A stretch of 7,570 bases of DNA from a virus (taxonomy: Duplodnaviria; Heunggongvirae; Uroviricota; Caudoviricetes), in the IMG/VR virus record IMGVR_UViG_2740892272_000003; one strand, written 5' to 3'. The notes under the pieces were generated by a model. That model was given only the letters and a program-made list of their open reading frames with translations. It made no database searches and was not told where the DNA came from. The translations under genes and the position numbers were made by a program. Of this stretch, positions 3,668-3,779 are shown piece after piece. Position 1 is the stretch's first letter. Every line of letters begins with the position of its first letter.

Positions 3668-3779
3668 TCCTGGTTAAATTTCATTTTTCGCGGGTATAAA
3701 AAAACGATGGGGCGGGCAGTCCGGAAGACGTCAGGTCACAGGGATTTGCCCCGCCCCTCCCTACAAGTGAGAATAATTA
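3668..3779. other. Candidate cos (packaging) region between the HNH and small terminase genes
   Basis: Non-coding interval at the position cos occupies in HK97-like genomes. It holds an A-tract (3694-3704), an imperfect GC-rich inverted repeat (GGGGCGGGCA 3709-3718 / TGCCCCGCCCC 3747-3757) and a central GACGTC palindrome (3727-3732). Confidence 0.3.

Follow-up and report, generated by a model that had tools for sequence, protein, structure and literature searches.

A very probable HK97-type cos site between the HNH endonuclease and P27-family small terminase genes of an SfV/SfI/phiP27-type lambdoid prophage

Positions 3668 to 3779 of the window (the whole 7,570-nt stretch of viral DNA analyzed here) very probably hold the cos site of a lambdoid prophage of the SfV/SfI/phiP27 type with HK97-style DNA packaging, as judged from sequence comparison with related phages. 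The cos site itself is already known, as it was mapped experimentally in near-identical phages more than 10 years ago. Only its modular architecture and its copies in satellite islands may be new. No description of such a modular architecture was found in the accessible literature, outside which most of the primary papers lie (the SfV, phiP27, and HK97 genomes). The location of the site fixes the true genome ends for annotation of this prophage family. Window coordinates are used throughout, and the phage sense is the minus strand. The site is made up of the following parts:

3743-3761, minus strand: G-box GGGAGGGGCGGGGCAAATC, which includes the right arm of an inverted repeat; putative upstream recognition element (cosQ-like, or for TerL/HNH)
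3723-3742, minus strand: 20-nt spacer CCTGTGACCTGACGTCTTCC, fixed in length but variable in sequence, with GACGTC inside
3719-3722, minus strand: conserved GGAC tetranucleotide, directly 5' to the cohesive end; the motif is G(G/T)AC across classes A and B and TGAC for HK97
3709-3718, minus strand: predicted cohesive end TGCCCGCCCC (cosN equivalent), from identity with SfI and alignment with phiP27, HK97, and PhiBP82.1
3676-3708, minus strand: downstream block ATCG-T7-AT-ACCCGCGAAAAA-T-GAAATTT at +1 to +33; putative cosB-like site of the P27-family small terminase (TerS)
3679-3762, minus strand: candidate minimal cos core of 84 bp, delimited by satellite islands

Position of the cohesive end

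Positions 3709 to 3718 are the exact reverse complement of TGCCCGCCCC, the cohesive end of phage SfI. When the SfI virion DNA ends were sequenced and compared with the prophage, a 10-nt gap, 5'-TGCCCGCCCC-3', was found (PMC3636060), and SfI, SfII, SfIV, and SfV have the same cos (PMC3851460). Unique, non-permuted virion DNA ends at this site are documented solely for SfI. In a megablast search of positions 3400 to 4150 against phage records, these four phages matched at 98 to 99% on the TerS side and the Stx2e phage phiP27 at 94% on the HNH side. The phiP27 record carries a misc_feature "cos-site," which reads GGGGCGGGCG in window orientation and is the homologue of 3709-3718. In addition, several deposited phage genomes terminate within the interval. 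The final 10 nt of the HK97 record align with 3709-3718, and the homologue of window position 3708 is exactly where the PhiBP82.1 record (a Burkholderia phage) terminates. The position of the cut relative to the G-box is therefore equal in four independent cases, namely, the SfI experiment, the phiP27 annotation, and the HK97 and PhiBP82.1 termini. The SfV and phiP27 cos data used here were taken solely via the SfI paper and GenBank annotation.

A cohesive end of the YGCCCGCCCC type is thus found at the mapped position (3718-3709, minus strand), and its length of 10 nt is supported by SfI. The 84-bp core around it is identical to, or 1 to 2 nt from, isolated phages and many viral contigs. The original prediction had placed cos between the HNH and TerS genes. 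This placement is borne out, as the left arm of the predicted repeat is the SfI cohesive end and aligns with the phiP27 cos-site and the HK97 terminus.

The predicted nicks lie between 3709 and 3708 on the minus strand and between 3718 and 3719 on the plus strand, which would leave 10-nt 3' overhangs. A gap rather than an overlap in the run-off reads is the pattern expected of recessed 5' ends. From the word "gap" in the SfI paper, together with the analogy to HK97, we infer the 3' polarity. The HK97 cos has 10-nt 3' overhangs (PMC9410871, PMC11331095). A figure legend of PMC9410871 gives this same value, whereas its discussion lists 12-nt 3' overhangs for HK97 and 10-nt 5' overhangs for lambda, apparently with the two numbers exchanged.

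Not every deposited record ends at the exact terminus. The SfV record U82619.2 is linearized between GACGTCT and TCCGGAC, 7 nt upstream of the 10-nt end, which indicates that its deposited termini differ from the real DNA ends. In the ST64B and SfII records, too, the breakpoint is arbitrary and lies nearby. For Burkholderia phage phiE125, the overhang, which we take to be 3'-GCGGGCGAAG-5', would match CGCCCGCTTC in vB_E438. A full-text literature search for the strings GCGGGCGAAG and TGCCCGCCCC returned unrelated papers only.

Packaging genes and state of the prophage

The interval is flanked by lysis genes on one side and by packaging genes on the other, all encoded on the minus strand and listed here in phage order:

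5131-5346, minus strand: holin gene, P21-type
4634-5131, minus strand: lysozyme gene
4173-4649, minus strand: Rz gene (PF03245)
4235-4417, minus strand: Rz1 lipoprotein gene (PF06085), embedded out of frame in Rz, as in a classical embedded spanin pair
3780-4130, minus strand: HNH endonuclease gene, 116 aa, the last gene before cos (Pfam HNH PF01844, E 1.6e-16)
3164-3658, minus strand: small terminase (TerS) gene, 164 aa from the ATG at 3658, P27 family
1434-3167, minus strand: large terminase (TerL) gene, 577 aa, HK97 gp2-like (PF03354 and PF20441)
84-1331, minus strand: portal gene

The order lysis genes, HNH, cos, TerS, TerL, and portal is common to HK97, SfI, and SfV. Since the start codon annotated in relatives is the ATG at 3658 and not the GTG at 3667, the intergenic gap spans 3659-3779. 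The HNH gene ends 18 nt ahead of the G-box (which runs from 3761), with its stop codon at 3780-3782. The position between HNH and TerS is not universal. In Vibrio phage P2 (KY658676.3, 535-1374 of the locus retrieved as L097), only 6 nt separate the HNH gene, which is misannotated as "holin," from a P27-type TerS gene, whose product is 49% identical to that of the window, so that cos cannot fit there. Between TerL and portal, the window also contains a 60-aa hydrophobic ORF (1240-1422, minus strand), which overlaps the longest portal frame (initiated at a TTG) and has no Pfam match.

TerL shares 26% identity with HK97 gp2 over 522 aligned positions (BLASTP E 8e-31), and its sole relative in the PDB is the HK97 TerL (6z6d, E 5e-26). 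The HNH protein is 34% identical to HK97 gp74 (E 2e-10), and it is 99%, 90%, and 79% identical to the HNH proteins of phiP27, phi467, and SfI, respectively. In the PDB, it best matches 5h0m, a phage HNH endonuclease. The N terminus of the HNH protein contains a Cys-rich, zinc-ribbon-like segment, which is absent from gp74. By eye, this segment resembles the zinc-ribbon group described among phage HNH enzymes (PMC3592412).

TerS belongs to the P27 family (PF05119, E 3.7e-20; TIGR01558, E 3.3e-20; above the curated cutoffs), of which phiP27 is the name-giver. It is 99.4% identical to the TerS of SfII and 98.2% identical to that of SfV. Identity drops to 45 to 50% for the TerS proteins of phiP27, Burkholderia, Vibrio, and Moraxella phages and to 24% for the phi467 type. 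No relationship between TerS and HK97 gp1 was detected (BLASTP E 6.9; hhalign probability 0.3%), and gp1 has no Pfam or NCBIfam match, whereas the window TerS falls in PF05119. A PDB search yielded no solved structure with a detectable sequence relationship to the window TerS. The original prediction drew on HK97-like phages. The likeness applies to TerL and HNH, which are homologous to gp2 and gp74, while TerS is of the P27 family and not of the gp1 type. The view that HNH, cos, and terminase form a single packaging unit is supported by the gp2 and gp74 homology and by published work on HK97, in which gp74 stimulates cos cleavage by terminase (PMC9410871).

It is conceivable, yet rather unlikely, that the site is cos by descent only, within a cryptic prophage, and always stays uncut in this host. 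Just beyond the holin gene, 1.6 to 2 kb away, lie an IS110-family transposase gene and a masked run of N, and the visible portion of the prophage spans only 7.6 kb. However, open, full-length reading frames are present for HNH, TerS, TerL, portal, holin, lysozyme, and Rz/Rz1, and the near-identity of the 84-bp core to isolated phages and many viral contigs also counts against a relic. Moreover, even in a defective prophage, cos is open to cutting in trans by a superinfecting relative.

The IS110-family transposase gene is intact (5714-6910, plus strand; PF01548 and PF02371) and adjoins the masked stretch. The prophage is possibly interrupted by this element upstream of the lysis genes, and defects elsewhere in the prophage are also conceivable. 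The masked stretch is a run of about 125 N (5358-5482), just past the holin start, and makes the late-promoter side of the lysis cassette unreadable.

Parts of the site and their probable readers

Cos regions were aligned in phage sense for the window, phiP27, ST64B, a Klebsiella phage, phi467, HK97, a Burkholderia phi1026b-like phage, Moraxella phage Mcat32, three satellites, and 37 distinct viral contigs. A TerS-based locus search returned only relatives that are 99 to 100% identical and was informative for variation in the upstream half. The diverse relatives were obtained by tblastn against phage records and by a G-box pattern scan. From the G-box to CGCGAAA, no gap interrupts the alignment of the E. 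coli, Klebsiella, Burkholderia, and Moraxella phages. Alignment with HK97-like cos regions, which the original prediction had named as a check, is likewise gapless from the G-box through the 10-mer, with the cut in the same columns.

The aligned regions yield the G-box consensus GGGAGGGGCGGG(G/T)CAAATC. The box is kept in phiP27, ST64B, Klebsiella, phi467-type, and Moraxella phages and in HK97 (GGGGGGGGATCAAATC), at a constant distance from the cut. The spacer keeps a length of exactly 20 nt in all aligned relatives, HK97 among them, and its GACGTC is replaced in relatives by CTGGCT, GAAGGC, or GCGCGC. G-box, spacing, and cut position are thus common to HK97 and the Klebsiella, Burkholderia, and Moraxella phages. 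Within the 10-mer, the first 7 to 8 bases (YGCCSCC) are conserved and the last 2 to 3 vary, which gives the cut site GGAC/YGCCSCC../ (slashes mark the cuts). Downstream of the cut, the block consists of a run of seven T residues (T7; 3698-3704) and ACCCGCGAAAAA (3684-3695), with T7-ATACCCGCGAAAAATGAAATTT spanning 3704-3676, and is followed by the ribosome-binding site and start codon of TerS. Within it, TTTTTA-N2-CCCGCGAAA at +6 to +23 is ungapped in the phiP27, Klebsiella, Burkholderia, and Moraxella relatives.

Among known systems, the Sf phages (SfI, SfV, SfII, and SfIV) are like the window in the identical 10-nt end, a TerS that is 98 to 99% identical, and the HNH-cos-TerS order. Between the 10-mer and the TerS start, SfV matches exactly and SfI at all but one base (the first, G for A). 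In contrast, the window groups with the phiP27 lineage in its HNH gene and in the 60 nt ahead of the G-box, and the G-box differs from that of the Sf phages by one base (GGGGCAAATC in the window, GGGTCAAATC in the Sf phages). Phage phiP27 has its annotated cos-site, CGCCCGCCCC, in the same columns, and shares with the window the nearly identical HNH protein, the G-box, the 20-nt spacer, GGAC, and the TTTTTACACCCGCGAAA block. However, its TerS is only 48% identical, its 10-mer begins with C instead of T, and its spacer lacks GACGTC.

HK97 has homologous TerL and HNH proteins, and its site follows the same frame: a G-rich box with TCAAATC, a 20-nt spacing, (G/T)GAC, and a C-rich terminal 10-mer. 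In HK97, these elements read GGGGGGGGATCAAATC, 20 nt, TGAC, and CGCCGCCAAA, the last being the final 10 nt of the record. The HK97 genome extends roughly 320 bp beyond the HNH stop codon. Its TerS is unrelated in sequence, and its downstream block differs in both sequence and layout, with AACCCGATTTTTTT at +17 to +30, compared to T7 at +5 to +11 followed by ACCCGCGAAAAA at +14 to +25 in the window.

The window resembles lambda (cosQ-cosN-cosB) in that a nicking site is preceded by an upstream element on the right end and followed by a putative TerS-binding region on the left end, beside the TerS gene. Lambda differs in its Nu1-type TerS and the lack of an HNH gene, the window TerS belonging to PF05119 and not to PF07471. 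In addition, lambda has a 12-nt 5' overhang and IHF sites. The lambda cosN sequence GGGCGGCGACCT has no match in the interval, and no IHF consensus occurs in 3659-3779, even with one mismatch allowed. A Nu1-type TerS, cosN, and an IHF site, which together define a lambda-type cos, are therefore all absent here.

Which protein reads which block is suggested by how the blocks vary with TerS. The TTTTTA-NN-CCCGCGAAA block is present wherever TerS is of the P27/SfV type, even in the Burkholderia and Moraxella phages, whose TerS is 45 to 50% identical. In phi467-type phages, the downstream block is CCCTTCCTCGCATCGCCGCAGGTTCGAAAAC-T8, and HK97 has another sequence, while the upstream blocks through the 10-mer stay constant. 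The G-box pattern scan of viral contigs gave 98 loci, which are not phylogenetically independent and under-sample G-box variability, as the box is fixed by the search pattern. Among these loci, the CGCGAAA-type block accompanies a P27/SfV-like TerS in 42 cases and a phi467-like TerS in none, and the CGCAGGTT-type block accompanies a phi467-like TerS in 24 cases and a P27/SfV-like TerS in none. All 42 of the 42 loci with both a TerS match and the CGCGAAA-type block carry the TerS class of the window.

Because the downstream block switches with the TerS type, it is probably the TerS binding site, analogous to cosB. HK97 TerS binds 15 bp (+15 to +29) downstream of the cut (PMC11331095), where it reads a C:G pair (position 21) together with the shape of the A-tract next to it. 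The window block at +5 to +25 overlaps this site, and both join a CCCG core to A/T tracts. The G-box, on the other hand, is common to HK97 and phages with other TerS types. Its probable readers are hence the partners conserved among these phages (TerL and/or HNH); alternatively, the box may serve as a cosQ-like termination signal at the right end.

Four mosaic phages (L110, L165, L217, and L218) combine the HNH/G-box/spacer half of the window with a phi467-type downstream block and TerS. The two halves meet inside the 10-nt cohesive end (CGCCCGCC/AA versus TGCCCGCC/CC, the slash marking the joint). A further set of 24 loci from the G-box scan has neither GGACYGCC after the 20-nt spacer nor a match to a P27-type or phi467-type TerS. 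These loci carry the G-box GGGGCGGGKCAAATC, 20 nt, and then differing sequences, such as ACAGCGGCGTGGGG, and about half of them have HNH upstream. The G-box may thus be more widespread than any single cos type.

The interval, which reads ...GTATAAAAAAACGATGGGGCGGGCAGTCCGGAAGACGTCAGGTCACAGGGATTTGCCCCGCCCCTCC... on the plus strand, had been singled out for an A-tract, a 10/11 inverted repeat, and a central GACGTC palindrome. All of these are present:

3698-3704, plus strand: A-tract A7
3709-3718, plus strand: left arm of the inverted repeat, GGGGCGGGCA
3747-3757, plus strand: right arm of the inverted repeat, TGCCCCGCCCC
3727-3732: palindrome GACGTC, about 3 nt off the center between the arms

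The repeat finder reports a perfect 8-bp core, GGGGCGGG/CCCGCCCC (3709-3716 and 3750-3757), and pairing is 10/11 overall, with a single bulged base. Individually, neither the A-tract nor the inverted repeat nor GACGTC goes beyond chance. In 2,000 dinucleotide shuffles of the 112-nt interval, a perfect stem of at least 8 bp is present in 7.9%, and the four 6-bp palindromes observed compare with 1.9 expected (P = 0.10). The hairpin shows no extra stability relative to the shuffles, with fold energies at z = -0.62 for RNA and -1.09 for DNA. A search of the interval against Rfam matched no family. The significance of the interval hence derives from homology and conservation and not from these motifs. 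Although GACGTC does exist, it is not central, being slightly displaced and located in the unconserved, variable spacer.

The two repeat arms are the G-box core and the cohesive end. They pair at 9 to 10 of 10 positions in SfV, SfI, phiP27, ST64B, and the satellites, at 4 to 7 in phi467-type phages, at 5 in the Klebsiella phage, at 4 in HK97, and at 3 in the Burkholderia and Moraxella phages. The cohesive-end variants CGCCGCCTCA, CGCCCGCTTC, CGCACCCTAA, and CGCCGCCAAA occur with an unchanged G-box, and no compensatory change was seen in the G-box of these arm-mismatched relatives. Conversely, G-box variants such as GGGGGAGG coexist with an unchanged 10-mer. Since pairing is lost without compensation and the G-box varies next to a constant 10-mer, the symmetry is not selected as such.

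These observations make it quite improbable that the inverted repeat itself is functional, as a cruciform or as a two-fold symmetric site for a dimeric nuclease (HNH or TerL) that needs complementary arms. Both arms do lie within conserved blocks, and they pair well in the SfV/SfI/phiP27/ST64B subgroup and the satellites. However, the cohesive end varies against a constant G-box, and an 8-bp stem arises readily in shuffled sequence. The inverted repeat, which the original prediction counted among the cos elements, has to be dropped as such, with pairing down to 3 to 7 of 10 in relatives and no compensatory change.

It is highly improbable that the hairpin and T-run (GGGGCGGGGCA...TGCCCGCCCC ATCG TTTTTTT, minus strand) form an intrinsic terminator or attenuator that ends the lysis/HNH transcript, with a secondary or absent role in packaging: the minus strand does offer a GC-rich 10-bp stem with T7 4 nt later, suitably placed just past the HNH stop codon, but the terminator scan gave no match within the interval, the loop is 28 to 33 nt long, the RNA fold energy is no better than that of shuffles, and the 3' arm is the experimentally mapped cohesive end. 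Pairing falls to 3 to 6 of 10 in the Klebsiella, Burkholderia, and Moraxella relatives that retain all other elements, and there the T-run becomes AAATTTTT or GAATTTT. Furthermore, lambdoid late transcription must traverse cos into the terminase and head genes. The terminator and the hairpin or cruciform readings were both rejected on the negative scan, the shuffle-level energy, and the unconserved stem; this also counts against a region that is only a terminator, which had been named as the outcome that would speak against cos.

Satellite islands and a modular model of cos

Three E. coli chromosomal islands, each about 9 to 10 kb long, match the window only at 3679-3762, with 92 to 96% identity, and in each case the match lies at the island end (L100, 9001-9084; L101, 10001-10084; L222, 10001-10084). 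Homology starts at the G-box and stops directly after CGCGAAAAATGAAA. One of these three matches, H50, lies at the end of its integrated island. The island genes encode Icd-like, DUF4222, D5-type primase, SSB, and Nu1-like or DUF1441 proteins, as well as a major capsid protein or a ClpP-protease/capsid fusion. L101 and L222 each have an integrase gene; none was found within the H50 stretch examined. The islands adjoin the host genes clpS or tRNA-Ile/mug, and no lambda-type cosN was found in the three islands.

E. coli phage-inducible chromosomal islands (PICIs) carry cos copies of their helper phages (PMC6739421). The islands described here look like PICI-type satellites, and their packaging would be provided by SfV/phiP27-type helpers. 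Given this precedent, and as the islands keep exactly the 84-bp core, 3679-3762 is marked as the unit that would suffice for recognition. All three parts of the site (G-box, cut site, and downstream block) lie inside it.

In the mechanism that we propose for the cos site, TerS, TerL, and HNH would together make staggered nicks flanking TGCCCGCCCC (minus strand, 3718 to 3709) on concatemeric DNA and so produce 10-nt 3' cohesive ends. The right end of the genome would then finish with the HNH gene, G-box, spacer, and 10-mer, and the left end would start at window position 3708 and run into the TerS gene. The G-box, at its fixed 20 nt, would be read by TerL and/or HNH or would act as a cosQ-like termination signal. 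The P27-family TerS would bind T7-ATACCCGCGAAAAA at +5 to +25 and hold the DNA for cutting, just as HK97 TerS does at +15 to +29.

More tentatively, and at somewhat less than even confidence, HK97-like HNH-assisted cos sites may be modular, with a near-universal upstream module and a TerS-swappable downstream module that are joined within the overhang and copied as an 84-bp unit by satellites. The upstream module would comprise the G-box GGGRGGGGCGGGKCAAATC, the rigid 20-nt spacer, and the first 7 to 8 nt of the cohesive end and would be read by TerL/HNH, perhaps as a cosQ-like termination signal. The swappable downstream module would be read by the cognate TerS, and small E. coli satellites would copy the 84-bp unit for packaging by SfV/phiP27-type helpers. 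The question concerned is how cos recognition and cutting are divided among TerL, HNH, and TerS. The G-box spacing, the TerS-specific block, the joint in the overhang, and the 84-bp core could guide experiments on HK97-type cos recognition. The site also marks satellites and plasmids that could be mobilized by SfV/SfI/phiP27-type phages.

The cos module is present in approximately 1,300 to 1,670 of 5,426 complete E. coli genomes, or about a quarter to a third. About 10 of 60 evenly sampled E. coli matches share the 3679-3762 bounds of the islands.
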